This document shows, one piece after another, positions 12,957 to 36,690 of a stretch of 64,000 bases of DNA. The position numbers and the translations under genes were made by a program. This DNA comes from a bacterium (GTDB lineage: Bacteria > Patescibacteriota > Minisyncoccia > Phycocordibacterales > UBA5272), in the NCBI GenBank assembly GCA_023267595.1, contig JAHFNB010000002.1, positions 87,947 through 151,946 on the forward strand. The letters run 5' to 3'. Each line of letters starts with the position of its first letter. Position 1 is the stretch's first letter. The notes beneath the pieces are model-generated. The model searched no databases. It worked only from the letters and a program-made list of their open reading frames with translations, and was not told where the DNA came from.

Positions 12957-12973
12957 GTGCGCCGGGCTGGATT
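12957..12973. repeat. 17-nt direct repeat gtgcgccgggctggatt (left copy; putative attL, a duplicate of the tRNA-Tyr 3' end)
   Basis: Exact match to 35948..35964, which is the 3'-terminal 16 nt of the minus-strand tRNA-Tyr. Confidence 0.7.
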
Positions 12974-13083
12974 AGGTCACAAAACTACCTCCTCATAAAT
13001 TCGTCGGAGATAGTTTCGCAACCCCGTATTCAAATCCAGACGTACATGACGCAGGTCATGTACTCCTAATGAATATAACCAAA

Positions 13084-13116
13084 AGAAAAAACTGGGGAGA
13101 ACCCAGTTTTTTCTTT
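13084..13116. terminator. bidirectional intrinsic terminator (A-run, actgggg-agaa-cccagt, T-run)
   Basis: aaaaaactggggagaacccagttttttctttt, about 140 nt downstream of clpB. Confidence 0.55.
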
Positions 13117-13484
13117 TGGTGCGCAGTAATAGAAGATGTTAGAACCGAGTTAATGAAGTCGGATACTATTCCTTATATACCTAATCTTAGCATGTGGGCA
13201 CAAAAAGTATAATTTACCCCACAGAAGCGAACACTATATAGACGCCCCTATACCCCCCGACTAGTTACCTTTCATCTTTCGATAACCTGGTAATGAGCGA
13301 TGGTACATACGGGGCATACCCCCCGATGTTGATCCCCGTACCGGTGGAAATAAGCCGATACATAACTTCATGTAAATAAACATACACTCTCGAACTTCGG
13401 AGGTACCCCATACCCCAACTTTTCCAAAGAAATTAATTTCCTAAAATCTGATTTAAATTTTTTATTTTTTTCCACTTGTCTAAT

Positions 13485-13498
13485 ACCCCCTAGGGGGT
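13485..13498. promoter_or_regulatory. putative CsoR operator: perfect 14-bp GC-rich palindrome accccctagggggt within the csoR promoter
   Basis: Located between -35-like ttgtct and -10-like tatact elements, 15 nt upstream of the csoR ATG. Resembles known CsoR operators (ATACCC...GGGTAT type). Confidence 0.5.
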
Positions 13499-13512
13499 GT
13501 ATACTACTAAAC

Positions 13513-13776
13513 ATGCAAAGTCATGATCCAAAACTAGTTAGACGTTTAAAGATTATTGAAGGCCAAGTGCGAGGGTTGCGCGAAATGGTAGAAAGAGGAG
13601 AATATTGCGTTGATGTTATAACGCAAAGCTCAGCTATAAAACAAGGTATATCAAATGTGGAGGATATTCTTTTGAAGAGCCATCTTTCAACATGTGTGGT
13701 AAAGCAAGTAAAAGAAGGTAATTCTGGGAAGGCTGTGGATGAGGTGCTTAAAATTTACCAACTAAAAAGAAAGTAA
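13513..13776 (+). CDS. csoR: CsoR/RcnR-family metal-sensing transcriptional repressor
   Basis: 87 aa. RLKIIEGQVRGLREMVERGEYCVDVITQSSAI is the DUF156/CsoR signature and includes the Cys metal ligand. Confidence 0.8.
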   Translation: MQSHDPKLVRRLKIIEGQVRGLREMVERGEYCVDVITQSSAIKQGISNVEDILLKSHLSTCVVKQVKEGNSGKAVDEVLKIYQLKRK

Positions 13777-14981
13777 TGAACTGCCCCATTTGTACAACTA
13801 GCATTGAAGTCAATTACAAGGAATTAAATGAAAGATGTCTTTGTGGTGATGCAAACACTCAGTCACTATATGCTAATTTCTCTTCACATTCACCAGTTTT
13901 TATCTCTCAAAAGATAGAAGAGAACATACAAGAAGCTATTTCTGTTATAGAAAAAGTAGTACATGGTGATTCCTTTAAAAAATCTCTTATAAAAGACTCT
14001 TTATTAAGTGTGAAAAATAGTGATGGTGGTATTTTATCGTGTTACGATTTTCATCTTGTTGGAGAAACTCCAAAGCTAATTGAAATTAACACAAACGCTG
14101 GTGGTTTTTTCTTAAACTATGAATTACTAAAAAGTTCCACAATTTGTTGCAGTCACACACAGGGACAAAATATAGAGAACTTGGAAGAGAAGATAGTTTC
14201 CATGTTCAAGAACGAATTCAAAAAAAATAGCGATAAAAAACTAGAGACGGTGGCAGTTATTGATGAAAATCCTGAAACTCAGTACCTTTATCCTGATTTT
14301 GTCATTTGTAAGAATATATTAGAAAAAAATGGAATCAAAACTTTTATTTTAAATTCTAAGGATCTACAGATTATTGATGGCACTGCGGTATACGATGGAA
14401 TTACTATCGATTTGATTTATAACAGATTAACAGATTTTTATTTCAAGAACGAAGAAAACCAAAAGTTTATTCCACTTCTAAAAAGCAAGACAACTGTTAT
14501 TTCCCCTAATCCAAATGATTATATTTTGTTCGCTAATAAAGCTAATTTACCATTTCTTCAAAATGAAGATGTTTATAAAGATGTTTTGTCACACAACGAA
14601 ATTGATACACTTAAAAAAACTCTTTTAGAGACGACAATGGTCAACAAAGACACAGCGGAATATCTCTGGGAAAATAGAAAGAAATATTTTTTTAAACCTA
14701 TCAACGGGTACGGTGGAAAAGGTGCTTATAACGGGAAAGGATTAACAAAAAAGGTCTGGGAGTATATTAGTTCTAACAGCTACATTGCCCAAGAAACTAT
14801 TCCTGCAAATACAAAGAATAAACAAATAGATGGGAAGGAGGAATCGTTTAAATTTGATATTAGGGCTTATACATATCAAGGTACTATTTTGCTTCTTGGA
14901 GCACGAGTATATCAAGGGCAGACAACAAATTTTAGAACCTTAGGTGGTGGGTTTGGATCTGTGTTTATTACAGAAAATTAA
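13776..14981 (+). CDS. hypothetical protein with N-terminal CxxC...CxC zinc-ribbon-like motif and possible ATP-grasp-like C-terminal region
   Basis: 401 aa. CPICTT...CLCGD at the N-terminus. C-terminus INGYGGKGAYNGKG...RAYTYQGTILLLGARV is loosely ATP-grasp-like, assigned from memory only. Confidence 0.35.
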   Translation: MNCPICTTSIEVNYKELNERCLCGDANTQSLYANFSSHSPVFISQKIEENIQEAISVIEKVVHGDSFKKSLIKDSLLSVKNSDGGILSCYDFHLVGETPKLIEINTNAGGFFLNYELLKSSTICCSHTQGQNIENLEEKIVSMFKNEFKKNSDKKLETVAVIDENPETQYLYPDFVICKNILEKNGIKTFILNSKDLQIIDGTAVYDGITIDLIYNRLTDFYFKNEENQKFIPLLKSKTTVISPNPNDYILFANKANLPFLQNEDVYKDVLSHNEIDTLKKTLLETTMVNKDTAEYLWENRKKYFFKPINGYGGKGAYNGKGLTKKVWEYISSNSYIAQETIPANTKNKQIDGKEESFKFDIRAYTYQGTILLLGARVYQGQTTNFRTLGGGFGSVFITEN

Positions 14982-14993
14982 TAGAGAAAATAT

Positions 14994-15602
14994 ATGAATA
15001 ACAATATACAAAAGCAAAAGTGTGAATTATGTAAGATGGAGTCAACACATTCTGAAAAGGATACACATGGAATAATTCATTATTTTTGCCAACATCACTC
15101 GCTTAAGCCTTCGGTAGTTAAAGCAAAAAATAAATACAAAGAACTTTTACCTCTCCTGTATGTTTTTCTTGTAATACTTGCCCTATCCTCAGTTAGACAG
15201 ATAGCTTTCGGTGTAAACCCAATGATATTTATGATGGATTTTATGGGAGTCTTTTTCATAGTGTTTGGGCTTTTAAAATTAATAGACTTGAAAGGTTTTG
15301 TCGATGGTTTTCAAGCGTATGACCTTATCGCTAAAAGGTATCGAATTTATGGTTACAGTTATCCCTTTATAGAAATAGTCCTTGGAGGAATGTACTTACT
15401 TGGCATCATGTTTTTGTGGCAAAATATTCTCGTCGTGATCTTAACGTCTATAGGTATATACACAGCTTACAAGTCCATCAATCATGAAGATGAAATTCGT
15501 TGTGTCTGCCTTGGAACTTTGTTTGACCTACCTATGACATGGGTTACTTTTTTTGAAAATACTCTTATGCTCTTGATGGTTATTTTTATGATTATCATGT
15601 GA
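14994..15602 (+). CDS. MauE/DoxX-like membrane protein with N-terminal Cys/His metal-binding motif
   Basis: CELC...HYFCQHH N-terminus followed by 4-5 predicted TM helices. Confidence 0.4.
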   Translation: MNNNIQKQKCELCKMESTHSEKDTHGIIHYFCQHHSLKPSVVKAKNKYKELLPLLYVFLVILALSSVRQIAFGVNPMIFMMDFMGVFFIVFGLLKLIDLKGFVDGFQAYDLIAKRYRIYGYSYPFIEIVLGGMYLLGIMFLWQNILVVILTSIGIYTAYKSINHEDEIRCVCLGTLFDLPMTWVTFFENTLMLLMVIFMIIM

Positions 15603-15644
15603 TACTCATAAAAATTAAAAATTAATTACTATAACTCTAACTAT

Positions 15645-16082
15645 ATGAAAAATAATACAATTTTTGGTGGAGCAATCGTTTCTGTGCTTCTTGGTCTCTT
15701 TATCGGATATGCGGTTTGGGGGAATAAGGCAATGGATAATAACATGAATATGAATATGGGGATGTCACAAAAAACTGGAGGACATATGATGCCAGATGGA
15801 ACTGTGATGGGAGGTATGGGGAGTACGATGTCTATGGAAAGTATGATGACAGGTATGATGGCTAATTTAAAAGGTAAAACAGGCAATGAATTTGATAAAG
15901 CATTTCTAACTGAAATGGTTATGCATCACGAAGGGGCTGTTGTAATGGCACAAGCTGTTCTTACTTCCACAGATCGGCCAGAGCTAAAAAAGCTAGCCAA
16001 TGAAATTATTGTTGCTCAGAATAAGGAAGTTAGTCAAATGCGGGCATGGTATAAAATGTGGTTTGGGACTGAATTAAAATAA
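15645..16082 (+). CDS. DUF305-family protein with Met-rich segment (copper-resistance associated)
   Basis: NEFDKAFLTEMVMHHEGAVVMAQ...KKLANEIIVAQNKEVSQMRAWY are DUF305 signatures. MNMNMGM/MGGMGSTMSMESMMTGMM is a methionine-rich putative Cu(I) motif. N-terminal TM segment. Confidence 0.8.
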   Translation: MKNNTIFGGAIVSVLLGLFIGYAVWGNKAMDNNMNMNMGMSQKTGGHMMPDGTVMGGMGSTMSMESMMTGMMANLKGKTGNEFDKAFLTEMVMHHEGAVVMAQAVLTSTDRPELKKLANEIIVAQNKEVSQMRAWYKMWFGTELK

Positions 16083-16117
16083 TTATAAATTAAGATACTT
16101 TATCAATAAATAAAAAT

Positions 16118-16339
16118 ATGAAACTATCAAAAGTATTACACGTAGGAAGTGTTATCGTTGGACTCATTGGAGTAATTACATTCATAGGAACTCTTATTGG
16201 AGGAGGCGATAACTTGGTATTCGGAGTTACAAAAATGGATGGCCTCGCATGTGCCGGACTCCTTATCCTTATTGCAACTTGGCTCCAAGTTGGAACTATT
16301 CACCACATGATGCTTGAGAAGCGTGGAGAAATTGTTTAA
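16118..16339 (+). CDS. small membrane protein (73 aa)
   Basis: Two predicted TM helices. Lies within the metal-resistance gene string. Confidence 0.4.
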   Translation: MKLSKVLHVGSVIVGLIGVITFIGTLIGGGDNLVFGVTKMDGLACAGLLILIATWLQVGTIHHMMLEKRGEIV

Positions 16340-16352
16340 CCAACATAATTAT

Positions 16353-16571
16353 ATGGAACACACTCACGAATCTGCGAGCAATACATTTTCAAGAAAGACC
16401 TGGTGGATAGTCTTCGCCATTGGTCTTGTCGGATTGGTATTTCTTCTAAGGGATCACACATCGCACGTTTTCTCAGTTCTGCCATTTCTCATTCTTCTGG
16501 CATGTCCCTTGATGCATCTCTTTATGCACAAAGGTCATGACGGCCACGATCACGGATCAGAAAATAAATAA
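16353..16571 (+). CDS. DUF2933-like small membrane protein with His-rich C-terminus
   Basis: One TM segment plus HLFMHKGHDGHDHGSE. Such proteins commonly precede P1B ATPases. Start set at the internal ATG MEHTHES to avoid overlap with the upstream ORF. Confidence 0.45.
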   Translation: MEHTHESASNTFSRKTWWIVFAIGLVGLVFLLRDHTSHVFSVLPFLILLACPLMHLFMHKGHDGHDHGSENK

Positions 16572-18699
16572 TATGGATCACTCCGCACACAAAATTGAGC
16601 ATAATACTCATGCTGGTCACGTGATGGGAGATACCTTAAAAATGACTTTGTGGGGAAAGTTGAAAATGAGTATGACGATGACCATGGGTATGGATCATAC
16701 TGGCCTTGCAGGCAGAGAGATGGCGCGTCTGATGGAAATTGATATAAGGAACAAGTTTTTCTTCTCCTTATTATTTACAATTCCTATAATCCTCTACTCC
16801 CCACTTGGAACAGAATACTTGAAACTTAGTCTTCCTTCCCCACTACCAATTCCGTGGTTACTGTTTATCTTAACCACACCAGTGTTTTTCTATTCTGGGT
16901 GGATTTTCTTGTACTCAACGTATATAGCTTTCAAGAATAAGACGCTTAACATGGCTGTTCTCGTAGCGGTTGGTATAACGGCTGCATACGCATTTAGTAT
17001 CCTTCTAACTTTTATTGGGAGCGCAGACTCATACTATGAAGCAGCAGCAATGCTTATAACCTTTGTTCTCTTTGGACATTGGATGGAGATGAAATCGAGA
17101 CGTGGCACAACAGATGCTCTTCAAGCCCTTTTTAATCTTGTACCCCCTCAAGCAAGAATATTCAAAGATGGAAAGGAGATTATGGTATCTACGGGAGACA
17201 TACAGCTTGGTGATATTATTATCTTGAAACCAGGAGACAAGGTTCCTGTAGACGGTGAAATAATTGAAGGAGAAACTGCAATTGACGAATCCCTAGTAAC
17301 AGGAGAATCAATCCCTACTTCTAAAAAAGTTGGGGATCAGGTTATTGGTGGATCAATCAATACCGCTGGTTCAGTGAAATTTAAAGCTACCAAAATTGGT
17401 AAAGATACCGCACTTGCACGTATTGTGGCGATGGTTGAAGAAGCACAGAACTCAAAGGCACCCGGGCAAAGAATAGCGGACAAGTTTGCAAAGTATCTCG
17501 TTATATTGGCAGTTGGATCAGGGGTTCTCGTTTTTGTAATCTGGTACTTTATTATGAGCGTGCCAATTCTGCTGGCTCTCTCTTTTGCAATTGCCACAGT
17601 TGTCATTGCTTGTCCTGATGCTTTAGGACTTGCTACACCAACTGCAGTTGCTGTAGCGACAGGGCTTGGAGCAAAACACAACATTCTTATAAAAGATGCT
17701 CCAACCCTTGAACAAGTTTCAAAGATTCAGGCAATTGTTCTTGATAAAACAGGTACTCTCACCGACGGAAAACCAACTGTTACTAATGTCGCAACTGTGG
17801 ACGGATATGATGAGGGTGAAGCACTTCGTTTAGTTGGTGCAGCAGAAGCCAAGTCCTCTCATCCACTCGCAGGCGCTGTGCTTGATGAGCTTAAGAGGCG
17901 AGGTCTTACATTGCCAGTGTCCGTTAATAAATTTGAGAATCTTTCTGGCTTAGGGGTTAAAGCTATTGTAGATGGAAAATCAGTACTCATTGGTACTGTT
18001 AAGCTTATGAAAGAAAGCAACGTTGCACTAGGCAGTATAGAGAATAAGATAAATGAGTTTTTGGAAAAGGGAGAAACGATTATGATTTTAGCAGTGGATG
18101 GTGAAATTAAAGCTGTGATTGGAGCAGAAGATCCAATAAAACCAAATGCCATTAAGGCAGTCGAGCGTTTGAAAGCACTAGGTATCGAGATCGCTATGAT
18201 TACGGGCGACAACAAAATGACTGCAGAAAAAGTGGCTAGTCAAATTGGTATAGAAAGAGTGTTTGCTGAAGTGATGCCTGAAGATAAAGCAACTTATGTC
18301 AAAAAGCTACAACAAGAGGGTAAGTTCACTGCAATGGTTGGAGATGGGGTTAATGACGCACCAGCTCTTGCTATTGCTGATGTTGGTATCGCTATTGGTG
18401 CTGGAACTGACGTAGCAATTGAGACTGCAAAGGTGGTCCTTATGAAGTCTGATCCTTTGGATATTCTTAGAGCCATAACTCTGAGCAAGGCAACTGTTCG
18501 TAAGATGAAGCAAAATCTTTTCTGGGCATCAATTTATAATGTTCTTGCGATACCGATTGCTGGTGGAATATTGTACCCGAGCTTCGGCATTATGCTTCGT
18601 CCAGAATTCGCAGCACTTCTTATGAGTGTGTCTTCGATAATCGTGGCCGTAAATGCAGTACTACTAAAGAGAGTGGAAAAGGACCTTATTGCTGTCTGA
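16572..18699 (+). CDS. heavy-metal (copper) translocating P1B-type ATPase with His/Met-rich N-terminus
   Basis: DKTGTLT phosphorylation site, TGES, GDGVNDAPALA, and transmembrane CPD (CPx-type) motif IACPDALGLATP. N-terminal HSAHKIEHNTHAGH/MTMTMGMDH replaces a CxxC HMA domain. Start chosen at ATG 16572 (the track start at 16537 overlaps the upstream ORF). Confidence 0.9.
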
Positions 18700-18761
18700 A
18701 ATTATAAGATACGACCAACAAACTTAATCTACATAATTAAAAAATAAATAACATATAAAAT

Positions 18762-18983
18762 ATGAGCCACAATTTTCACAATGAGGGAAACATAGGAAGA
18801 GTTGCATTCACCTTAGTCATTATTGGTGCTCTTGCTTGGGGAATTCTCGGGGCTTTTAACTACAATGTTATTTCTTCAATCTTTGGTGAAGGAATACTTA
18901 CTAGAGCGGTATATCATCTGATCGGCATATCTGCTTTGTTTGTTGTCTTTAGAAAGTTCTTTCGGGAGAAACATACCCACTAG
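18762..18983 (+). CDS. DUF378-family small membrane protein
   Basis: 73 aa. VIIGALAWGILGAFNYNVI is the DUF378 signature. Confidence 0.55.
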   Translation: MSHNFHNEGNIGRVAFTLVIIGALAWGILGAFNYNVISSIFGEGILTRAVYHLIGISALFVVFRKFFREKHTH

Positions 18984-19025
18984 CTATAGGACTAATGGTA
19001 TGTATGATAAAATAAATTAATAAAT

Positions 19026-19385
19026 ATGAAGAATCTAATAAGCAAGAAAAAAATAAAACTATTTGGTTATATTGCCTTTTTTGCTTTTTCTTTTGCATGG
19101 ATAATATGCAATTCTCATGTAAGTTTTTTATCTTCAACCTCTGGACCAATTACTCATCATGAAGAATCTTCACCTTCGCATAATGAGTCCTGTATAGACC
19201 ATACACAAGTCTTTTCAAGAAGCCAAGGGTCTGACTATCATGCTGATTTCAGCTACATACCAGCAACACCTACCTCGTTAGATTTTTCTTTAGTTCAAAT
19301 GTGGCAGGAAATGACTCCTCCACATCTTGTTGAAATAGATAGTGGACAGCGCTTATTCCTACAAAATAAAGTATTGCGAATATAA
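19026..19385 (+). CDS. small secreted hypothetical protein
   Basis: N-terminal signal/TM peptide followed by a His/Ser-rich region. Confidence 0.35.
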   Translation: MKNLISKKKIKLFGYIAFFAFSFAWIICNSHVSFLSSTSGPITHHEESSPSHNESCIDHTQVFSRSQGSDYHADFSYIPATPTSLDFSLVQMWQEMTPPHLVEIDSGQRLFLQNKVLRI

Positions 19386-19432
19386 AATAATTAGTCTTAT
19401 TTACTAATTACTTTTATCTACACAATACTTAC

Positions 19433-20332
19433 ATGAACAAACAAATTATTATCGGTGTCCTAGCCGTAATCCTTATAGGAGGAGGCGCTTACTACTTCAC
19501 GTCTTCAAAATCAAATGTTGCCTCCGATGGCCATACTGATCATACTCATGAACAAGAGGATATGGCTGGAATGGAGGGAATGGATCATTCAAAAATGCCA
19601 ATGATGGCATCAGGTGCAACACTTGCAGGTACACGAATTAACATAAAAAACCAAAGTTTCAAATCAGGAAGTCAAAATCTATCTTTTGAGCTTTTTGGTC
19701 AAGATGGACATGCGTTTGATGAGAGTCTTCTAAAAATTACTCATGAAAAGAAAATGCACTTCATTCTTGTAAGTAACGACTTTTCTAACTATCAACACTT
19801 ACACCCAGAGTTCAAGAATAATCTTTGGCAGGTTGATGTTGCTTTAGATGCAAATACAGGATATCAGGCCTATGTTGATATTGATTCAAATGAAGACGGA
19901 GCGGAAACATTAAGAGTTCCTGTCATTGTAGGCACCCCTGCTGCAAAGTCTAAAGTCTCACAAAGAGAAACCACACTATCAAAGGACGGGGTATCTATAA
20001 AGATGGATGCGCCAAAAGGATTCCTCTCAGGACATGAAAATGAAGTGACGTTTACTCTCAGTCAAAACGGAAAAACAATAAACCCTGAGAACTATCTTGG
20101 TGCGAAAGGCCACGTTGTTGCCTTAGGAGATGATCCAAATACATTTATTCATGGGCATCCAAGCGAAGACGGTGACAGTGAAGCACATTTTGCTTTCACT
20201 TTTGAAAAGACCGGAACGTACACCCTCTTTGCCCAATTCCAAGTCGGAGGCGTAGTGCGCACATATCCATTTACCGTGAGTGTTGCTGAAGGTAATTCAA
20301 CTGTTGACGAATCTCAACCTCACGATCATTAA
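19433..20332 (+). CDS. secreted Met/His-rich putative copper-binding protein
   Basis: Signal/TM segment, HTDHTHEQEDMAGMEGMDHSKMPMM, C-terminal HDH. Predicted beta-rich domain. Confidence 0.5.
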   Translation: MNKQIIIGVLAVILIGGGAYYFTSSKSNVASDGHTDHTHEQEDMAGMEGMDHSKMPMMASGATLAGTRINIKNQSFKSGSQNLSFELFGQDGHAFDESLLKITHEKKMHFILVSNDFSNYQHLHPEFKNNLWQVDVALDANTGYQAYVDIDSNEDGAETLRVPVIVGTPAAKSKVSQRETTLSKDGVSIKMDAPKGFLSGHENEVTFTLSQNGKTINPENYLGAKGHVVALGDDPNTFIHGHPSEDGDSEAHFAFTFEKTGTYTLFAQFQVGGVVRTYPFTVSVAEGNSTVDESQPHDH

Positions 20333-20343
20333 TCTCTTACTAT

Positions 20344-22131: not shown

Positions 22132-22136
22132 AATAT

Positions 22137-25184: not shown

Positions 25185-25202
25185 GTTTTAAATGGCACAA
25201 AA

Positions 25203-25231: not shown

Positions 25232-25265
25232 AGGTTGTTGGGTGGATTTTTAGTAAACTCTATAT

Positions 25266-26018
25266 ATGAAAAAAGGGTTATTGCTCATATTGCTATCAGG
25301 TATAGTTGCTCTAGGATATATAGTATTCTCTGATAAAGTTACCGAGCAAGAACAAAATATACTTACTCCAGCGTCTATTGTAATTTCTAAACAGGATCCT
25401 CAAAAGGAAATTGTTATCGAAAGCGTTACGATGCCAGCAAATGGTTGGGTAGTTGCCAGAGCAATTGAGGGTAATAGATTGGGTCAGATTATTGAAATAA
25501 GCGAATTTCTTTCTAAAGGAAATCATGCCCAAATTGTAGTTCCACTTGGTGATTTTTATAACGGCGAAGAGTTAATTGGTATGATCTATGTGGATAATGG
25601 AGATACTATTTTTAATGACAATGACCAGCCGTATAAAGATACAAAGGGCAACATGATAGCTGCTTATATTAAAACTGGTGAGCTAGTTCCCGTGTCTATG
25701 ATGCAACCTGAAGTAAATGCTGGGCACATGATGGGTGGTAATATGGTTACTGTTACATATACCAATGCTGGTTTTGTACCAGCAAGAATTGAAGTTGCTA
25801 CAGGCACTATGGTTGAATTTATAAATAAAAGCAACAAGGAAATGTGGGTTGCCTCAAACGATCACCCCGGACATGAAGTTCTACCAACTTTTGACCAGTT
25901 TAAAACTATAGGAAAAGGAGGAAGGTACACATATGTTTTTGATAAGCCAGGAACATGGCAATACCATGATCATATTAATCCCGAATTAGTTGGGACTATT
26001 GAGGTACGGACAAACTAA
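25266..26018 (+). CDS. secreted cupredoxin-like putative metal-binding protein
   Basis: Signal/TM segment. C-terminal GTMVEF...HPGHEV...GTWQYHDHINPELVGTIEV resembles a cupredoxin fold with His ligands but no Cys. Confidence 0.4.
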   Translation: MKKGLLLILLSGIVALGYIVFSDKVTEQEQNILTPASIVISKQDPQKEIVIESVTMPANGWVVARAIEGNRLGQIIEISEFLSKGNHAQIVVPLGDFYNGEELIGMIYVDNGDTIFNDNDQPYKDTKGNMIAAYIKTGELVPVSMMQPEVNAGHMMGGNMVTVTYTNAGFVPARIEVATGTMVEFINKSNKEMWVASNDHPGHEVLPTFDQFKTIGKGGRYTYVFDKPGTWQYHDHINPELVGTIEVRTN

Positions 26019-26021
26019 AAA

Positions 26022-26046
26022 GCACCCAACTGGGTGTTTTTTAGAT
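26022..26046. terminator. bidirectional terminator between convergent genes
   Basis: aaaaagcacccaactgggtgttttttag. Confidence 0.5.
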
Positions 26047-26202
26047 TTTGGTTAACCGTACGCAATGGATATGCAATTGATTGTAAAAAGCTAAACTTGA
26101 AAATGCTTCCATATCGTCTCTAAGCTTCTCAATTTGCCCACCAGTGAAGTCTTTACCACCATCTGGTATTATTTTATCTCTCATTTCTTGGATTGTTAGC
26201 AT
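26041..26202 (-). CDS. unannotated small ORF (53 aa) immediately downstream of the 810-aa gene
   Basis: Hand translation MLTIQEMRDKIIPDGGKDFTGGQIEKLRDDMEAFSSLAFYNQLHIHCVRLTKI. Separated by 14 nt from the upstream stop. No clear SD. Confidence 0.25.
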   Translation of the reverse strand: MLTIQEMRDKIIPDGGKDFTGGQIEKLRDDMEAFSSLAFYNQLHIHCVRLTKI

Positions 26203-26216
26203 GGTTTGATTTTGAT

Positions 26217-28649: not shown

Positions 28650-29179
28650 TACAAGGAATTATAGTCTTTTAATACCTCCTTTGCACCTTCTTTATATAAA
28701 TGAAAAATCTCTTCTGAAAAGAGAACAAATCTTATTTCTTCAAAATGATCAGATTCTCCTATAAATTCTTTAATGGTTGAAAGTGCTATAGGAACAGCTT
28801 CTTCAGGAGGATACCTAAATGACCCTGTCGCAAGAGAAGGAAAAGCCAGGGTCTTAATATCATGTTTCTTGGCTAAATGTAAAGTGTTTCTGTAACAGAG
28901 TCTTAGTATCTCGGCCTCACTTCCTTTCTCAAAACCATACTCTGGCCCAACCGTATGGATTACGTGCCTAGCGGGTAAATTATGGCCTCTAGTGAGCTTT
29001 GCTTCTGCTGTTTCGCATCTACCTACCAGGTAGCATTCTTCAGTAAATTTTGGGCCAGCTCTACGATGAATAGCTCCTGTTACTCCTCCACCTTTCCCAA
29101 GCCACTTATTGGCGGGGTTTACGATTGCGTCAACAGCTTGTTCAGTAATGTCACCTAAAATTACTGTTACTCTGGTCAT
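28649..29179 (-). CDS. Macro-domain protein (ADP-ribose / O-acetyl-ADP-ribose processing, YmdB-like)
   Basis: ITEQAVDAIVNPANKWLGKGGGVTGAIHRRAGP...VIHTVGPEY...LAFPSLATGSFRYP are Macro-domain signatures. Confidence 0.85.
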   Translation of the reverse strand: MTRVTVILGDITEQAVDAIVNPANKWLGKGGGVTGAIHRRAGPKFTEECYLVGRCETAEAKLTRGHNLPARHVIHTVGPEYGFEKGSEAEILRLCYRNTLHLAKKHDIKTLAFPSLATGSFRYPPEEAVPIALSTIKEFIGESDHFEEIRFVLFSEEIFHLYKEGAKEVLKDYNSL

Positions 29180-29325
29180 GGTTGCTTGGGAATAGGCTTG
29201 TATACAGAGTTCACTAGCGTGATTAAACTCATAGCTTGATCAAGGGCTTCTTGTTCAGAAAGATCTAGTCCTGTTTTTCTTTTGTATATTTCTTTATACT
29301 TTTGGACCAGTTCTTCATTTGTCAT
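29176..29325 (-). CDS. unannotated small ORF (49 aa) translationally coupled (ATGA overlap) to the Macro gene
   Basis: Hand translation MTNEELVQKYKEIYKRKTGLDLSEQEALDQAMSLITLVNSVYKPIPKQP. Its stop overlaps the Macro ATG. Predicted helical. Confidence 0.3.
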   Translation of the reverse strand: MTNEELVQKYKEIYKRKTGLDLSEQEALDQAMSLITLVNSVYKPIPKQP

Positions 29326-29327
29326 AA

Positions 29328-30317
29328 TTAGAATTTAAAAAACCTTGAAAAGATCTCTTTATACCATTTTACTTTGCTTTTGTTTTGGATATCCGTAACT
29401 GGAGTTGTAGTTGTAGTTACTACTCCAACCATGGAAGTCGTCGCTATTACTGTTGTACTAGATTTGGATTCCATAATTACCGTTTTTGATTTAGCAATAG
29501 CTTTAACAGTAGGAACTTTTTTAGTAACAATAGTTGTACTTGTTGAGGTGGGTGTTTCTTTAAATGCCTTGGAGAGCACAGAAGCAAAAGGATTACCTGT
29601 GTTATTCCATTTAGTCTCATCCTTGATAACCTCAGCACTGATTTTAGGAGGAGTAGTAACACAACCAGTTGCAGATAAGCTATACCCTGAATCACAGACA
29701 CATTTATTATTTTCTGTGTGGGTATTTGGATACTTTACTGTACAAGAATCTGTGCGATCAACAACTAAACACGATAGAAGAGTCTTGTATTTGAAAATAG
29801 TATCCTGAGAATTATAGAGACAGGAATTATATTTGGTCTTATTGTATTCAGTCTGTTTCGCCTTAGCGTCTTCACAGTCAGTTGTGTTGGCATATAGTCC
29901 AGCACTCACACTGCCCGCTATATTCATCATACTTTGCCTAGACTTTACACAAATTTGATATGTTTGCTCATTCCTTCCTTCATCTGTACTAAGGAAGCCT
30001 TGGCACATGGTTTGTGTACTCGATTCTACTTTACTTATAGAGCTTTCTACTTCCTGTTTCTGTTTATCATATTCAGCTTGTGGCAAATACATAGGACAAC
30101 TTGTCTTAGTGTTCTGACATGAGCTCATTGAAGAATAAGAAACTGAACTATCTTTCCATCCATCATTACAAATTACACTTCCATCCCAATCTGCACCCGC
30201 CGAACAACTAACTCCACCATGATATGAACATGCCCCCGCATCAGCACTTACTAAACTAGTATTAGAAATAGAAAAAACAAGAAACAAAATATAAAAAACA
30301 GATATTGTATTTTTCAT
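29328..30317 (-). CDS. secreted Cys-rich protein with Thr-rich C-terminal linker
   Basis: Signal peptide, about 20 Cys residues, and a TTTTTPVT/TSTSTT low-complexity tail. Confidence 0.5.
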   Translation of the reverse strand: MKNTISVFYILFLVFSISNTSLVSADAGACSYHGGVSCSAGADWDGSVICNDGWKDSSVSYSSMSSCQNTKTSCPMYLPQAEYDKQKQEVESSISKVESSTQTMCQGFLSTDEGRNEQTYQICVKSRQSMMNIAGSVSAGLYANTTDCEDAKAKQTEYNKTKYNSCLYNSQDTIFKYKTLLSCLVVDRTDSCTVKYPNTHTENNKCVCDSGYSLSATGCVTTPPKISAEVIKDETKWNNTGNPFASVLSKAFKETPTSTSTTIVTKKVPTVKAIAKSKTVIMESKSSTTVIATTSMVGVVTTTTTPVTDIQNKSKVKWYKEIFSRFFKF

Positions 30318-30572
30318 TTTAGCGTGGGATTAATCTGTGTCAGGCAACAAAAATGGTCCCCCGATACAGCGACAATCTCCGAAGAGACGTCCCTCAACCT
30401 TTCAGTTGAGGACCCACGCTAATGAATGCCGATCAGGAGACCGTTTTTATTAGCGTGGGTTTTGTCAGCCATGACACCATAATTAAAAGTGTTTTAGGCT
30501 ACAAATATTCAATTGTCCATACTATTATCGCAGAAAAAGGCTAAATAAACAATTATTCTGTCAAGGTTAAAT

Positions 30573-31322
30573 ATGGTATATTTTGAGCTAATGAGTAACC
30601 TGTCGATTATAGAAAAACAAAGTCTTTCTGTCCTGGAACATCTGGAATATATGATTGATCTAGGGCATGTAATTCCACTAAATAAAAGTGGGGTTAAGAT
30701 CCAAAAATATGACGTCACATTTGGTGATATCGACTTTAAAGCTCTGGGTTTGCCTAAACTAGAAAACTTTTATGGTATTTCTAAGTACTTACGAAATAAT
30801 GGCGTGATGTTTACCATAGACTTTGATTTAGTAAACGATCACCCCGCGCAGGAGGTGAGTGGAGAGATCTATGATGAAGACATGGTTCACCTGGGTTCTC
30901 TAGAAGGTCCAAACATAAAAGCCATCAGAGAGAACATAGCATCTCTTAAACAAAAGATTGTCGGTAAAAATATTACAGACAACCAAAAAGGAAATATAAA
31001 AATAGTTTTTAATATTAAGAAATATTCTCTTAATATTAATGCTGATACGATTCTTTTTGACCCCAGCACTTTAGATTGGAGCTTAATTAAAGTTCTTGTT
31101 GAGAAACAGTATCAAGGAAAGACACTAATTTCGTGGGACGAAGTTCTTGAATTCTTCAATGGAAGACCTTATACGGGTAAACCTGTCATAGGGCAAAAAC
31201 AAGTTGGAGATTCGAGAGACCGCTTAAACAGAAAAATTAAGAGTTCCTTTGGCCTAAAAGAGAACCTTATCACTAGGAAAAAGAATCAATACTCACTAAC
31301 AAAAAAAGTGACTAAAAAGTGA
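30573..31322 (+). CDS. hypothetical protein (island gene)
   Basis: 249-aa ORF with basic C-terminus. No family recognised. Confidence 0.4.
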   Translation: MVYFELMSNLSIIEKQSLSVLEHLEYMIDLGHVIPLNKSGVKIQKYDVTFGDIDFKALGLPKLENFYGISKYLRNNGVMFTIDFDLVNDHPAQEVSGEIYDEDMVHLGSLEGPNIKAIRENIASLKQKIVGKNITDNQKGNIKIVFNIKKYSLNINADTILFDPSTLDWSLIKVLVEKQYQGKTLISWDEVLEFFNGRPYTGKPVIGQKQVGDSRDRLNRKIKSSFGLKENLITRKKNQYSLTKKVTKK

Positions 31323-31576
31323 CCGTAAGTGAGTCACCACTAGTTATTAGAAAATCGGGATACAGTATCCTGATTTTTTATTGGGATCTGTATTACAAAA
31401 TGCAGATTAGTGAAGAACATCTTAAAAAATATCAAACTATCTTTTTTGAGGTATATGGATATGAAATAGATAAAACTCAGGCTCTAACTGAGCTTACTTC
31501 TCTTGTCTGTTTAATTAATGCTGTTCATAAGCATTTAAACACTAAACCCCATGCTAAAAGAGTACCTGCAGAATAA
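31319..31576 (+). CDS. hypothetical small protein (island gene)
   Basis: 85-aa ORF overlapping neighbours by 4 nt and 26 nt. Confidence 0.3.
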   Translation: MTVSESPLVIRKSGYSILIFYWDLYYKMQISEEHLKKYQTIFFEVYGYEIDKTQALTELTSLVCLINAVHKHLNTKPHAKRVPAE

Positions 31577-33707
31577 AGGAATATCCTTCCGAGAATCAAA
31601 TGGAGAGCTAATTGTAAGGTGTCTTTTTAACGACTGTGATAAAGATAGTCGTGGACAAGAGGCACACTTATATTTCGACGCGTCCACATCTCAATATCAT
31701 TGTAAAAAATGTGATTCCCGCGGAAATATAATAACGCTTAAAAAACACTTAGGCGATGTTTCAGTTCCTGTTCAAAATCAAAACAAAAGGAACATCAAAA
31801 CTCTAACACCTCTTATGGTGGAAAGATATCATAACGACTTACCTCAACACATTGTTGATTACCTCCATAAGCGTGAAGTTACTGATGAGATTATCTCTAA
31901 ATATAAATTAGGGTATAAACAAGAATATGGCACCTTTTGGATTACTGTCCCTATAAAAGATATAGATGGAAATTATGCTTTCTTCAAACTTCGTCAAGAT
32001 CCAAAGCTTGGTAGCGAAAAGCGTATGTGGCCCGCATCTGAAAATGGTGCACAAATATTTGACTGGGAAACTCTTTTAATGGCAAAAGAAAGAATTCTTA
32101 TCGTCGAAGGTGAAGGTGATGCTCTTACGGTTAAGTCTCGCAATATCGATTGTATTTGTGGCACAGCAGGAGCGGGCACCTGGAAAGAATCATGGAATGA
32201 ACATCTAAGACCAGAGCTTGAGTATTTTATATGCTATGACAATGACGAACCTGGGAGAAAAGGTGCGTTGCGTGTAGCAGAGAATCTTTTTAAGCATGGA
32301 TGTGAAAAGATTCGCATTGTTACTCTTCCACCAGAAGTAGGTGATAAGGGTGATATTGGAGACTACTTGGCACGCTTAAAAATGCCACTGGAGGATCTTT
32401 TTACTAAATATGCGGAGGAATACCCAAAGAAGATAGATACGCGTAGTTTTACAGAGGTTCATATTGATTTTGTGAAAGATGTTCTTGAAAGCACAATTAA
32501 AAAAGATGATGACAACAAGATTATTACATTTCTATCAATGCTGACAACCTATACTGATGAAGCGCAAATAAACATTCTCTTTAATGCTCCAAGTTCAACA
32601 GGTAAGTCTCACCTGCCAATATCAGTTAAAGACTTATTCCCGTTGGAAGACCTTATAGTCTTAGCCAACTGTTCTCCTACGGCGTTTTTCCACGAGCAAG
32701 GACAATATGACAAGGAGAAGAATCAAATTATGGTAGATCTGTCGAGAAAAATTCTTATCTTTACTGATATGCCTAACTCTGGATTGCTAGAACGACTTCG
32801 TCCAATGTTATCTCACGATCAAAAAGAATCAGTTATGAAGATAACTGATAAGAATCAGAAAGGAGGAAATAAGACAAAAACAGTGGTCCTTGTGGGATAT
32901 CCAAGCGTGTACTTCTGTACTGCTGGCCTAAAGATAGACGAACAGGAAACAACAAGGTTTATTACATTGAGTCCATCAATTGAGCAAGACAAACTAACAG
33001 CGGGAATTAAGCAATCTATTGCAAAAGAATCAGACCGAGAGAAATTCTTATCAGAAGTAAATGCAGATCCAAATAGGGAACTTTTGAAAGAAAGAATACG
33101 AGCAATCAAACAAGAAAGTGTTGTGGATATAAAAATAAAGGATACAAAACTTATTGAAGACATGTATTTAGACAATAAGAAGTTGGTAAAACCACGTCAC
33201 CAACGTGATGTGAAGAAAGTCATTTCCCTTATCAAGGGTTTCACTCTTCTTAATTTGTGGTTTAGAGAAAGAAAAGGAGGACATGTTTTTGCTAATGAAG
33301 AGGATATAAAAAATGGTGTAAATCTCTGGTTACAAATATCTGATGGTCAGGATTATGGTGTAGCACCATATGTCCTTGAAATCTTCAAGGAGGTTATTCT
33401 TCCTACGTGGCAAGAACACAAGAGCAAAGCCTTGGGTTCAGGTTTTGGGGTAGAAGGAATATCGCGTGCCGAGATACAAGAAAAGCATAAATTGAAGTAC
33501 GGACGCTCCATCAGTCCCGTATACCTCAGACAACAAATCCTCCCTCAAATGGAGGGTGCAGGCCTCATCTCACAGGAACAAGACCCACTTGATAAGAGAT
33601 TCTCTCTCGTAACCCCACTAGAGAGTGAATTTGAATCTGAAACGAATATAGTGTTGCCACATGTGGGGGTAAACATCGACAAAAATGAAGAAAATAATCC
33701 AAATTAA
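31551..33707 (+). CDS. primase-like replication protein: CHC2 zinc finger + Toprim domain fused to a C-terminal P-loop ATPase
   Basis: Zinc finger CLFNDC...HCKKCDSRGN. Toprim acidic motifs ILIVEGEGDALTV and YDNDEPGRKG. Walker-A-like NAPSSTGKSH and hhhhD ILIFTDM. Confidence 0.7.
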   Translation: MLKEYLQNKGISFRESNGELIVRCLFNDCDKDSRGQEAHLYFDASTSQYHCKKCDSRGNIITLKKHLGDVSVPVQNQNKRNIKTLTPLMVERYHNDLPQHIVDYLHKREVTDEIISKYKLGYKQEYGTFWITVPIKDIDGNYAFFKLRQDPKLGSEKRMWPASENGAQIFDWETLLMAKERILIVEGEGDALTVKSRNIDCICGTAGAGTWKESWNEHLRPELEYFICYDNDEPGRKGALRVAENLFKHGCEKIRIVTLPPEVGDKGDIGDYLARLKMPLEDLFTKYAEEYPKKIDTRSFTEVHIDFVKDVLESTIKKDDDNKIITFLSMLTTYTDEAQINILFNAPSSTGKSHLPISVKDLFPLEDLIVLANCSPTAFFHEQGQYDKEKNQIMVDLSRKILIFTDMPNSGLLERLRPMLSHDQKESVMKITDKNQKGGNKTKTVVLVGYPSVYFCTAGLKIDEQETTRFITLSPSIEQDKLTAGIKQSIAKESDREKFLSEVNADPNRELLKERIRAIKQESVVDIKIKDTKLIEDMYLDNKKLVKPRHQRDVKKVISLIKGFTLLNLWFRERKGGHVFANEEDIKNGVNLWLQISDGQDYGVAPYVLEIFKEVILPTWQEHKSKALGSGFGVEGISRAEIQEKHKLKYGRSISPVYLRQQILPQMEGAGLISQEQDPLDKRFSLVTPLESEFESETNIVLPHVGVNIDKNEENNPN

Positions 33708-33725
33708 GAGCTAATAGCCAAAATT

Positions 33726-34187
33726 ATGAACAATAAACATAAGATACAGAGAAATAGACCTATCTTACTCACAGATATTCTGAGTAAAAACGTGCTTTTA
33801 CCAGGAGAAAGTCAGTACGAGCTTCAGAAAATACGTGAAAAGACCTTAAAAGACGTAGTTCCGATAGGAGCTTTAGAAGAAATTCTTTTTTCAAAAGTAG
33901 TTGCCGATACATGGAAACTGAGAAGGTTGTATGTTCTGGAAACAAGTGTTTTAAGGGATCAACAAATTGTTTGGGCTAAAAAACAGGCAAGTGAGAATGA
34001 GTTTTCCCTTGAGGTATACAGAGGCGACAAAGCCCTTAAAAGATTCCGCAGTACCGCTAAACAATTGAAGTACACAAAACAACTTGAGGATATTCAAAGA
34101 CATCAAACAAGTCTGGAATCTAGTCTTATTAAAACGATCTCGGAATTAAAGGATCTACAAAAAGTAAGGTTGAAAAATAAAAACTAG
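33726..34187 (+). CDS. hypothetical coiled-coil protein upstream of the recombinase (candidate directionality factor)
   Basis: 153 aa, charged and helical. Position only. Confidence 0.35.
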   Translation: MNNKHKIQRNRPILLTDILSKNVLLPGESQYELQKIREKTLKDVVPIGALEEILFSKVVADTWKLRRLYVLETSVLRDQQIVWAKKQASENEFSLEVYRGDKALKRFRSTAKQLKYTKQLEDIQRHQTSLESSLIKTISELKDLQKVRLKNKN

Positions 34188-34275
34188 CTTCATCGAATAT
34201 GTTATTATTAATATGCTCATCCAAATACGCATTGTCAGAAATCTCTAATACACTAGAGAATAGTCTGTATTGTCG

Positions 34276-34349
34276 CACTAAAAGGCGGTCCTTTCCGATA
34301 ATACAGGCTTCGGCTATGTGTATTGGATGAGCAGGACCGCCTTTTAGTG
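34276..34349. repeat. 17-bp perfect inverted repeat (cactaaaaggcggtcct / aggaccgccttttagtg) with 40-nt spacer, just upstream of the recombinase start
   Basis: Read directly from the sequence. The right arm ends 10 nt before the ATG at 34359. Confidence 0.6.
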
Positions 34350-34358
34350 TTATTAATT

Positions 34359-36014
34359 ATGAACAACAATATCAAGTGGGTAATATATGCGCGTAAGTCA
34401 ACAGAATCAGAAGATAAACAGATTCAATCAATTGACGACCAAACTAAATACATGCGAGAGATCGCAACGCGCGAAGGTTTGAATGTGATCGAAATCATTA
34501 CTGAATCAAAATCTGCAAAAGTGAAAAATAACCGTGAAGGGTTTAGTAGACTTCTTTCACTTATTGATTCAGGAAAGGTCCAAGGTATTCTTTGTTGGAA
34601 AATGGATCGTCTTTCGCGCAACCCTGTAGAAAGTGCGAATATTCAAGAGGCTCTACAACTACGAAAACTGGAATGTATATATACAGCCGAAAGAAAGTAC
34701 TGGCCTGAAGATAATGCTCTCATCTTTGCAGTTGAACAAGGAATGGCCAATCAGTACTCACGCGACCTTTCAAAAAATGTGAAGCGTGGTATGCAATCAA
34801 AAGCTGAAAAAGGATGGTTCCCGAATATTCCTCCTATTGGTTATCTAAATTCAAAACTAAGAGACAAAGGTAATGAGACTATTTTGATAGATGAGGAGCG
34901 ATTTAAAATTGTAAGAAAAATGTGGGATCTTATGCTTACAGGAACATATTCATTACCTCAAGTTCTTAGAATAGCCACTAATGATTGGGGACTTACCACG
35001 CCAACTAGAAAGAAACTTGGTGGAAAAGCTGTATCTATAAGCTATGTATACCTAATGTTTTCTAACGAGTTCTATACAGGAACATTTAAGTATTCAGGGA
35101 AAATATATCAAGGCAAACATAAGCCAATGATCACAAGAGATGAATTTGATAAGGTCCAAATGATTCTTGGAAAGAAAGGTAAACCAAGAGCAAAAACACA
35201 TTCTTTCCCTTTTACAGGACTGCTTCATTGTTCTGACTGTAGCGCAATCATTACCGCTTCTGAAAAACAAAAGCTTGTTAAGTCTACTAACACTGTGAAT
35301 ACATATGTCTACTATCACTGCACGAAGAGGAAGAAGTACGTTAAATGCTATTCGGCTCCAATTCGCGTAGAGGAACTAGAGAAGCAGGTAATATCACTGA
35401 TAGAGAAAAATTCTATTAATCAGAAGTTCTATGACCTTGCATTAGAAGTATTTAAAGGAATGCATGAAGTTGAGGTTGATACTCGCCAGGCTATTTATTC
35501 TACACAGTTAAGAAACGTAGAAGTAACGCAAGCCAAGATTGATAGAGCTAAGACATTTCTTTTTAATGGAACAATTTCTGAAGAAGAGTACAAGACACAA
35601 AAGGCAGAATGTGAAAGTGATTTAGTAAGACAAAAAGCTCAGCTACTTGAAACAGAGAAGCGCGCGCAAAATTGGAACCAATTAACTGAAGACGCTTTTC
35701 ACTTTGCAAAATATGCAATCAATGCATTTTCATCCGATGATAATCAAATCAAAAAAGAAGTAATAACTAGCTTAGGTTGGAACCATGAAATAAAAAGCAA
35801 AGAAGTCTTAATCAATCTGCATTCATGGTTTACGGTACTAAAAAATGGTGAAATTGATATAACAGAACAGATGAGACGGTTGGAACTAAACAAAACCCTT
35901 ACACCCGAACGACGAAAAGAGGCATCAGCCTCAATTCATACTAGGTTGTGCGCCGGGCTGGATTTGAACCAGCGAAGCCCGAAGGGCGACAGATTTACAG
36001 TCTGTTGTGATTGA
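34359..36014 (+). CDS. large serine recombinase (resolvase/invertase N-domain + recombinase domain + zinc ribbon)
   Basis: VIYARKSTESEDKQ...DRLSRN catalytic-domain motifs (Ser nucleophile in YARKST). About 550 aa, with a Cys cluster HCSDCS...HCTKRKK. The C-terminal 66 nt overlap the antisense tRNA-Tyr. Start moved to the ATG encoding MNNNIKWVIY. Confidence 0.85.
   Translation: MNNNIKWVIYARKSTESEDKQIQSIDDQTKYMREIATREGLNVIEIITESKSAKVKNNREGFSRLLSLIDSGKVQGILCWKMDRLSRNPVESANIQEALQLRKLECIYTAERKYWPEDNALIFAVEQGMANQYSRDLSKNVKRGMQSKAEKGWFPNIPPIGYLNSKLRDKGNETILIDEERFKIVRKMWDLMLTGTYSLPQVLRIATNDWGLTTPTRKKLGGKAVSISYVYLMFSNEFYTGTFKYSGKIYQGKHKPMITRDEFDKVQMILGKKGKPRAKTHSFPFTGLLHCSDCSAIITASEKQKLVKSTNTVNTYVYYHCTKRKKYVKCYSAPIRVEELEKQVISLIEKNSINQKFYDLALEVFKGMHEVEVDTRQAIYSTQLRNVEVTQAKIDRAKTFLFNGTISEEEYKTQKAECESDLVRQKAQLLETEKRAQNWNQLTEDAFHFAKYAINAFSSDDNQIKKEVITSLGWNHEIKSKEVLINLHSWFTVLKNGEIDITEQMRRLELNKTLTPERRKEASASIHTRLCAGLDLNQRSPKGDRFTVCCD
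35948..35964. repeat. 17-nt direct repeat gtgcgccgggctggatt (right copy; within the tRNA-Tyr 3' end, putative attR)
   Basis: Exact match to 12957..12973. Confidence 0.7.
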
Positions 36015-36636: not shown

Positions 36637-36690
36637 TATTTGTATTGTATTTACTATAAACTAGTAACTATCAACTAAAAACTATTAATT

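Follow-up and report, generated by a model that had tools for sequence, protein, structure and literature searches.

Identification of an Integrative Element at a tRNA-Tyr Gene

The stretch of DNA analyzed in this work (hereinafter, the window) comprises 64,000 nucleotides of contig JAHFNB010000002.1, from the patescibacterial assembly GCA_023267595.1. Positions 13125–35953 of the window very probably correspond to a 22.8-kb integrative, plasmid-like element of the Candidate Phyla Radiation (CPR; Patescibacteria), put at the 3' end of a tRNA-Tyr gene by its own large serine recombinase (LSR). An initial annotation of the same region had delimited a mobile island by means of a 17-nt direct repeat, GTGCGCCGGGCTGGATT; the present analysis places the junction elsewhere, at a 6-bp core, and points to an attachment site (attP) embedded in the recombinase gene. 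The comparison with related sequences shows the insertion itself, its core, the split gene, a circular relative, and a copy in a second species. The coordinates of all the features are reported in Table 1.

The existence of relatives with an uninterrupted clpB-tRNA-Tyr-msrA site indicates that the island of the window is an insertion. Scanning species-representative genomes with MsrA retrieved L003, whose ClpB and MsrA share 93% and 88% identity, respectively, with those of the window, and in which the genes follow one another in the order SOD, clpB, terminator hairpin, TTGG plus tRNA-Tyr, msrA, msrB, and HIT, with a gap of about 35 nt between clpB and the tRNA gene. The uninterrupted site of L009 is arranged in the same way, and the flanks of the window, once joined, align to L003. 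Hence the empty tRNA-Tyr site, which the initial annotation had proposed to look for in related genomes, does exist (L003 and L009), with clpB, terminator, tRNA-Tyr, and msrA adjacent to each other. The host is assigned to the CPR on the basis of its relatives and of genes flanking the island, for instance one encoding a DUF5671 protein.

The tRNA-Tyr of the window is 100% identical to that of L003 across the shared span (35948–36032); the L003 gene also encodes the 3' CCA, which is missing from the window gene and from four other tRNA genes of the window (both tRNA-Leu and both tRNA-Thr). In L003, the antisense of CCA, TTGG, sits directly before the tRNA 3' end, after the terminator hairpin. 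The window counterpart of this hairpin-plus-TTGG layout is located directly before position 13119, 146 nt past the left 17-nt copy, the hairpin sequences being different. Among related species, the orientation of tRNA-Tyr with respect to clpB is inverted (L006, L008, L083, L087, and L098 vs. the window, L003, and L009), so that the element ends up beside either end of clpB. Four independent metagenome contigs (L002, L004, L085, and L086) end inside tRNA-Tyr, at or near the junction, as is expected where assemblies branch at a polymorphic insertion site.

The Junction and the Split Recombinase Gene

Homology between the integrated and the unintegrated forms breaks at the 6-bp sequence GTGCGC, found at both ends of the element (13119–13124 and 35948–35953). 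In a DNA alignment of two left junctions (attL) with the three attP forms L096, L097, and L099, homology starts exactly at GTGC and extends rightward through the recombinase tail and a conserved TTTACCCCACA..ACACTATA block, whereas the sequence to the left of GTGC is of host origin in the attL forms and is LSR coding sequence in the attP forms. In the window, the attL core is followed by AGTAATAGAAGATG, and this right side aligns with the same three attP forms. The flanking direct repeat that coincides with the attachment core is GTGCGC, and not the 17-mer. The element, i.e., positions 13125–35947 plus one copy of the core, measures 22,829 bp. All cases have GTGC(G) in common as their core, and the crossover dinucleotide is probably TG or GT rather than GC, since GC is palindromic. 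The predicted attP junction reads CATACTAGGTTGTGCGCAGTAATAGAAGATG and the predicted host (attB) junction reads CCCAGTTTTTTCTTTTGGTGCGCCGGGCTGGATTTGAACC.

The reading frame of the integrated LSR enters the tRNA gene by 67 nt, its last 20 residues being tRNA-Tyr antisense. The last 29 codons of the native gene (VIEDVRTELMKSDTIPYIPNLSMWAQKV, followed by the stop codon) stand at the left extremity of the element, where they continue in frame from the core. When 34359–35953 is joined to 13125–13212, the product is a 560-aa protein ending in HTRLCAVIEDVRTELMKSDTIPYIPNLSMWAQKV before the stop, which aligns column for column with the intact homologue P0003 (82% identical, ending in ..TSMCTLIDNVRTELMKSEVVPYIPNLRAWSEKV). 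Other intact homologues, including P0028, P0050-54, P0059-63, and P0067, among more, also align end to end with this reconstituted LSR. Since the native C-terminus is encoded right after the core, attP is placed by these alignments within the LSR open reading frame (ORF), and the gene is partitioned on integration.

On this basis, the integration very probably proceeds as follows. The attP site is embedded in the coding part of the LSR gene, some 29 codons ahead of the stop codon, and is centered on the conserved Cys codon in TGTGC; when it recombines with the end of the tRNA gene (GTGCGC in antisense, tRNA positions 69–74), strands are swapped within the 6-bp core. The tRNA is left intact; the LSR gene remains next to it but gains a 20-aa tRNA-antisense tail, while the native 29-codon tail ends up at the other extremity. 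Excision would restore the 560-aa LSR on a 22,829-bp circle, and the free element presumably replicates through its primase-ATPase module. Variable cargo is carried in the interval that separates the detached tail from the LOOT-RNA/regulatory region.

Split, Free, and Second-Host Copies

A complete 9.4-kb element, L087, whose LSR is 62% identical to that of the window, is split likewise, with a TGTGCG core at both ends. Its right junction (attR) reads TCTC-TGTGCG-TAGAGAGG, at tRNA-Tyr, and its attL reads TTTT-TGTGCG-GAGTACTGG, 4 bases from the alr start codon, the tail then continuing to ..VLEDVRTELMKSPVTPYIPNLSMWACKVK and the stop. No repeat longer than the 6-bp core is present in L087, and the surroundings of the tRNA proved devoid of long repeats in L083, L087, L089-L092, and L095; this absence was the first hint of a short core.

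Unintegrated forms are also represented. The LSR genes of L096 and L097 are intact, with no tRNA nearby. L099 is an 8,862-nt contig with a 30-nt terminal overlap and an intact 560-aa LSR, and L100 is a circular permutation of it; hence the sequence assembles as a circle, that is, an approximately 8.83-kb circular episome seen on 18 contigs.

A further copy, L098, comes from a different sample and is 99.58% identical to window positions 25578–36032 across 10,455 nt, the match reaching as far as the tRNA 5' end and no further. The host flank of this copy is divergent, with clpB on the opposite strand and 81.8% identical, and SOD and SufS at 74%. The contrast between the nearly identical element and the divergent host flank indicates that the element entered the tRNA-Tyr of two species recently.

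The LSR homologues of L083, L087, L089, L090, and L098 share one reading frame where they overlap tRNA-Tyr. Among more distant homologues, that of L091 (43% identical) overlaps tRNA-Gln and that of L092 (42%) overlaps tRNA-Asp, while the one in L095 (30%) is located about 25 nt from tRNA-His.

The Recombinase and Its C-Terminal Ends

The protein is assigned to the large serine recombinases on the basis of its domains and of structure matches, and its catalysis of attP × attB recombination is predicted. The Resolvase domain (PF00239; 1.3e-22, residues 20–164, with the motif IYARKSTE near the N-terminus) is accompanied by the Recombinase (PF07508) and zinc-ribbon (PF13408) domains. The solved structures matched are the C-terminal domain of the A118 integrase (4kis and 6dnw) and the catalytic domains of TP901-1 and TnpX. 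No other recombinase was found in the island.

In order to survey the C-termini, the 120 closest LSR homologues were inspected. Approximately 75 of them end in T-arm-antisense-like peptides (e.g., ..DLNQR.., ..DSNPR.., and ..ESNP..), about 20 stop two or three residues past the conserved Cys, and 17 or 18, depending on the pattern used, carry the native tail (L/M)C-x-(V/I/L)(E/D)-x-VRTEL...IP-x-L-x-W, which is conserved across homologues only 45–82% identical. A single cluster at 90% identity (P0003, P0123, and P0125) holds both free and integrated forms, most members being free and having the native tail. The end of P0125 differs from the native tail of its cluster mates; this points to insertion at a tRNA whose acceptor and T-arm are different, and may reflect a rapid target change or a different host.

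For the intact homologue P0003, AlphaFold gives a model whose mean predicted local distance difference test (pLDDT) score is 81, with long coiled-coil helices at residues 373–453. The swap point falls in the middle of a confidently predicted helix (residues 534–560, pLDDT 87–91), which is followed by an IPxL segment and a short helix. In this model, the tail looks like a part of a C-terminal domain that is folded, and the enzyme in its integrated form may not function in the same way.

The 17-nt Repeat and the Adjacent 146-nt Segment

The 17-mer described in the initial annotation is indeed an exact direct repeat, with just two copies in the window (12957–12973 and 35948–35964) and no third one even allowing up to two mismatches, and none of 100 dinucleotide-preserving shuffles gave a match; within the window, it is not a sequence scattered at many unrelated places, an outcome that the annotation had named as refuting. 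The location of both copies also stands: the left one begins 9 nt past the stop of clpB (12948), and the right one is the 3' end (mid-T-loop to C74) of the minus-strand tRNA-Tyr recognized by both ARAGORN and Rfam. The tRNA-targeted footprint that these copies were taken to represent stands only in part, since the region is a mobile island at the 3' end of tRNA-Tyr, but its breakpoint is the 6-bp GTGCGC and not the 17-nt repeat. As judged from the alignments, the left 17-mer is not a junction of the present integration, lying 163 bp to the left of the true one.

Between the left 17-mer and the attL core lies a structured, non-coding segment of 146 nt, whose RNA fold reaches −60.4 kcal/mol (z = −10). 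No Rfam family matched it at the gathering score, the best one being ncr1015 (37.9 bits vs. 60, E = 0.00075). The first 17 nt of the segment, GGTCACAAAACTACCTC (12975–12991), are exactly repeated at 2857–2873, near tRNA-Leu(tag), where they are preceded by AGACTT, resembling a T-loop half (GGACTT in the tRNA), and, after approximately 190 nt, a terminator and the tRNA-Leu(tag) 3' end come next. Both copies, then, have a T-loop-half-like neighbor and are followed by 100–190 structured nt, a terminator, and a tRNA 3' end (tRNA-Tyr and tRNA-Leu-tag, respectively). These sites may represent a second type of integrative element, in miniature or decayed form. In L008, a degenerate second copy of the tRNA-Tyr 3' end is located about 175 nt downstream of the gene. 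A scan of IMG/VR for the GGTCAC 17-mer gave no match.

We give about an even chance to the possibility that the 17-mer and the 146-nt segment are the scar, or miniature remnant, of an earlier T-loop insertion by another kind of element, beside which the LSR element was inserted later. The island-free site of the same species would then read clpB, AAATATAA, 17-mer, 146-nt segment, and tRNA-Tyr with its encoded CCA. The empty junction predicted from the 17-mer was searched for in JGI metagenome contigs by an exact-pattern scan, which gave no match; that pattern was itself wrong, the true empty site including the 146-nt segment.

Alternative Interpretations

If the 17-nt repeat were the attachment core, the island would extend over 12974–35947 and would have been integrated in one step, in a T-loop-to-3'-end manner. 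The repeat is exact, is unique to two sites of the window, and spans the T-loop-to-3'-end block typical of tRNA-targeting integrases; nevertheless, this hypothesis is extremely improbable. A circle joined at the 17-mer would carry a premature TAG stop in the recombinase, with the conserved tail 150 nt away, whereas in the intact homologues the tail is contiguous with the rest of the LSR gene. Moreover, the homology to unintegrated forms begins at 13119 and not at 12974, L087 has the 6-bp core only, and the hairpin-plus-TTGG layout that in L003 precedes the tRNA 3' end would fall inside the island so defined (even though the hairpin sequences differ). Finally, no tyrosine integrase was detected in the island with Pfam.

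A different question is whether the element, once integrated by its LSR, can still move. It might be a fixed remnant by now, the C-terminal domain of the LSR having been destroyed on integration, as in the "suicidal" integrases of the SSV type, with no self-excision. The position of the swap point within the modeled helix and the conservation of the native tail among divergent homologues, which suggests that the tail is needed, favor this view, as does the failure to find a circular form of the window element. It is unlikely, though, because the nearly identical copy in a different species (99.6%) implies very recent mobility, the window and L087 each retain the two pieces of the LSR gene undamaged and in frame, and free and integrated forms share one 90%-identity cluster (P0003, P0123, and P0125). 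The combination of an integrase with a primase-helicase module, which is the typical core of satellites, together with PHROGs matches to primase and integrase, would also be compatible with a prophage or with a helper-dependent phage satellite, such as a phage-inducible chromosomal island. We regard this as very unlikely: according to Pfam and PHROGs, genes for capsid, portal, terminase, tail, or packaging redirection are absent from the window element, whose only PHROGs matches are to primase and integrase, and no such genes appear in the precomputed Pfam annotations of L087 and L099, the sole check made on these two. In addition, 2.9 million IMG/VR contigs contained no recombinase relative, no attP pattern, and no conserved element-side attP arm.

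Some observations weigh against an integrative element that is still mobile and bounded by the 6-bp core. The integrated LSR may be impaired, and the element locked in place, because in the model the tail swap starts inside a confidently predicted helix; moreover, no recombination directionality factor was identified for the element. The exact reconstituted LSR is absent from the protein collection, where no circular form of the window element was found either, and the left junction of L098 lies beyond the end of its contig. Exact-protein look-ups of ClpB, SOD, and the 563-aa recombinase ORF gave no match, the start codon or the allele being different from that recorded. The G+C content, proposed in the initial annotation as an island marker, is not discriminating (0.377 in the element vs. 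0.380 and 0.346 in the left and right flanks, respectively), only the block from the ATPase to the RND (resistance-nodulation-division) pump being higher (0.402). The origin of the 17-mer and of the 146-nt segment is reconstructed by inference, and all the sequences used for comparison are metagenome assemblies.

Backbone, Cargo Genes, and Their Variation

The family to which the element belongs has a common backbone, in the order: a minus-strand gene preceded by a LOOT RNA, an ORF of about 249 aa, an ORF of about 85 aa, a primase-ATPase of about 700 aa, sometimes an ORF of about 153 aa, and the LSR. The LOOT RNA, an sRNA motif, is found at the same position in L098 (4794–4923), in L087 (6176–6294; 87 bits), and in the circular L099 (1–111; 74 bits), and was not detected in L083, L089, L096, and L097. 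Where found, it is always immediately 5' of the minus-strand gene and divergent from the replication module. This module is conserved in L083, L087, L089, L096, L097, and L099.

The primase-ATPase of the window combines a Toprim domain (phrog_47, DNA primase), a zinc finger, and a Walker-A motif (APSSTGKS), in agreement with the fusion of a zinc-finger/Toprim primase to a P-loop ATPase recognized in the initial annotation. In a comparison of L083, L096, L097, and the P0002 contig with window 31551–33707, L087, and L099, the C-terminal ATPase part of the replication protein is kept (59% identical), while the N-terminal primase is either of the Toprim/DnaG type or a Prim-Pol; one domain has thus been swapped in an otherwise shared backbone.

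The region from the detached tail to the backbone is variable, being occupied by metal-resistance genes in the window, by type I restriction genes and a GH18 enzyme in the P0002 contig, by an SNF2 helicase and DnaJ in L083, and by DUF3800 and HEPN/AbiU2 proteins in L099. All the metal-resistance genes listed in the initial annotation are present in the window (those for CsoR, DUF305, DUF2933, the P1B ATPase, DUF378, the adaptor, the RND pump, and the His/Met-rich secreted proteins), and its identification of the recombinase, with a 3' end overlapping the tRNA, is borne out by the three domains and the 67-nt overlap. The cargo would represent a CsoR-controlled copper/heavy-metal efflux set, its metal specificity being predicted from family matches. 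The RND pump has a periplasmic-adaptor-type partner (20344–25184 for the two genes), and no outer-membrane factor gene was seen in the island; the CPR bacteria are generally thought to lack an outer membrane.

Four of the eight ATACCCC sites of the window cluster at the left end of the element. A csoR gene with its operator had been proposed for this region, and a CsoR-family repressor with the palindrome ATACCCCCTAGGGGGTGTAT just upstream is indeed present; the ATACCCC repeats, however, are not solely a CsoR operator, given that in the circular L099, which has no csoR, the ATACCCC-type sequence ACCCCATACCCCA is likewise found after the stop codon of the recombinase (5422–5434). The repeats may be iterons or another binding site.

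The gene for the 810-aa protein is translationally coupled to those for the Macro-domain protein and the 49-aa ORF, and the trio, which L098 retains as well, may form a toxin-antitoxin or defense module. PADLOC, PHROGs, and NCBIfam returned no function for the 810-, 401-, 329-, 249-, and 153-aa proteins. No type IV secretion system, coupling protein, or relaxase was found among the Pfam, PHROGs, and NCBIfam matches of the main island genes, the 810-, 401-, 329-, 299-, and 249-aa proteins having no assignment, and no oriT or relaxase was identified in the element; we infer some route of transfer between cells.

Table 1. Features of the element and of its flanking regions (window coordinates).
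Feature	Position	Strand	Description
clpB, left-flank host gene	10252–12948	+	Pfam AAA_2, ClpB_D2-small, Clp_N; 93% protein identity to L003 clpB
Left 17-mer	12957–12973		Displaced tRNA-Tyr 3'-end fragment (T-loop to C74); outside the recombinase junction and off the homology breakpoint
146-nt structured non-coding segment	12974–13118		Three hairpins, the last a terminator-like 19-bp stem (13078–13120) ending in TTGG
attL core, GTGCGC	13119–13124		Same as 35948–35953; host-type terminator and TTGG on the left, element sequence on the right
Detached recombinase 3' piece	13125–13212	+	Joined to GC at 35952–35953, encodes A-VIEDVRTELMKSDTIPYIPNLSMWAQKV-stop
Left-end non-coding region	13250–13502	+	Four ATACCCC repeats, the last within the palindrome ATACCCCCTAGGGGGTGTAT upstream of csoR
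Cargo block	13513–26018	+	csoR, 401-aa ORF, MauE/DoxX, DUF305, DUF2933, P1B copper ATPase, DUF378, further cargo genes (Pfam, NCBIfam)
P1B copper ATPase	16537–18699	+	TIGR01511, 589 bits, above cut-off; TIGR01525 also above cut-off
RND adaptor	20344–22131	+	Weak family match
CusA/CzcA-like RND pump	22137–25184	+	TIGR00914, 557 bits, best family but under the 701-bit cut-off
Remaining cargo	within 13513–26018	+	Two His-rich secreted proteins (His/Met-rich by residue composition); DUF7282/cupredoxin protein
810-aa protein, Macro-domain protein (28649–29179), and 49-aa ORF	26217–29325	-	Pfam Macro, 3.7e-37; all in L098
329-aa backbone gene	29328–30317	-	Downstream of LOOT RNA; N-terminus conserved in the L087 gene at the equivalent position
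LOOT RNA (Rfam RF03000)	30371–30500	-	63.3 bits vs. gathering score 46.4
Replication module	30573–34187	+	249-aa ORF, 85-aa ORF, 718-aa primase-ATPase (31551–33707), 153-aa ORF
LSR, integrated form, 551 aa	34359–36014	+	Pfam Resolvase, Recombinase, Zn_ribbon_recom; phrog_95 integrase, 1e-75
attR core, GTGCGC	35948–35953		tRNA positions 74 to 69
tRNA-Tyr(gta), intact	35948–36032	-	ARAGORN; Rfam tRNA model, 59 bits
msrA and msrB, right-flank host genes	36097–37068	+	Pfam PMSR, SelR; syntenic with L003, L006, L008, and L009

Comparison with Known Systems and Implications

It is known that a 6-bp core is usual for serine integrases, whereas a long tRNA repeat is the pattern of tyrosine integrases. 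The window element resembles the LSR elements described so far (phages A118, TP901-1, Bxb1, phiC31, and R4, and SCCmec CcrAB) in its three-domain enzyme and in the location of the recombinase gene beside the attachment site; it also shares with them a short identity core and no evident arm-type repeats. Unlike those elements, its target is a tRNA 3' end and its attP lies inside the recombinase ORF. Phage R4 was considered as a precedent for an attP within the integrase gene and was rejected, since the R4 attP lies just upstream of the coding sequence of the integrase and stops at its start codon. According to Mageeney et al. 2020 (PMC7192596), serine integrases were "not known for targeting tRNA genes"; these authors reported 14 cases out of 297 and called for experimental proof. 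Among the papers retrieved by a keyword-based literature search, none described tRNA-targeting serine recombinases in CPR bacteria or a serine-integrase attP within its own gene.

A parallel to the gene partition comes from Archaea, where the "suicidal" tyrosine integrases of the SSV type, encoded by viruses and plasmids, have attP in the integrase ORF and a tRNA target, the gene being partitioned on integration and rebuilt on excision (Badel et al. 2020, PMC7253208). The attP in the ORF, the tRNA target, and the gene split on integration are all shared with the window LSR. However, SSV-type integrases are archaeal tyrosine enzymes whose gene is cut into two inactive halves, whereas in the window a CPR serine enzyme exchanges only its last 29 codons for a tRNA-antisense tail; having no tyrosine recombinase fold, the window LSR resembles that class in its way of working without belonging to it. 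The island is also similar to the tRNA islands of tyrosine integrases in that it is located at a tRNA 3' end, preserves the tRNA, has empty-site relatives, carries adaptive cargo, and may bear traces of more than one event at one tRNA; those islands and mobilizable elements have cores of 15–50 bp, while the window island has a recombinase of another family, a core of 6 bp, and no identified relaxase or oriT. In the integration-dependent immunity of mycobacteriophages, attP is located in the repressor gene and integration alters the C-terminus of the protein, the integrase being a tyrosine enzyme. There, the repressor is affected, and here the recombinase is; a regulatory role of the swap would be hypothetical in the present case.

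Broadening the view to the homologues, one might tentatively propose, though the idea is rather doubtful, that a whole clade of LSRs, common among CPR bacteria, is specialized on the extreme 3' ends of tRNA genes with attP in their own coding sequence, and that the two forms of the tail (native and folded in free elements, tRNA-antisense in integrated ones) report the state of the element. If this were true, the tail swap could switch the direction of recombination or the activity or stability of the enzyme, and target switching among tRNAs (Tyr, Gln, Asp, and His) would be coupled to the evolution of the LSR C-terminus.

For those who delimit genomic islands, the case suggests caution, in that the longest tRNA repeat next to an island need not be the junction of the recombinase that the island carries. 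Serine integrases are valued as genome-engineering tools, and a large natural LSR clade targeting tRNA 3' ends would add to the known landing sites that are conserved and predictable. With its attachment site within the LSR gene, the element has a possible way to sense whether it is free or integrated. As for the mobile elements of CPR bacteria, which are poorly known, the family described here is defined by a backbone of LOOT RNA, primase-ATPase, and recombinase, and has a circular form, variable cargo, and signs of a recent spread across species.

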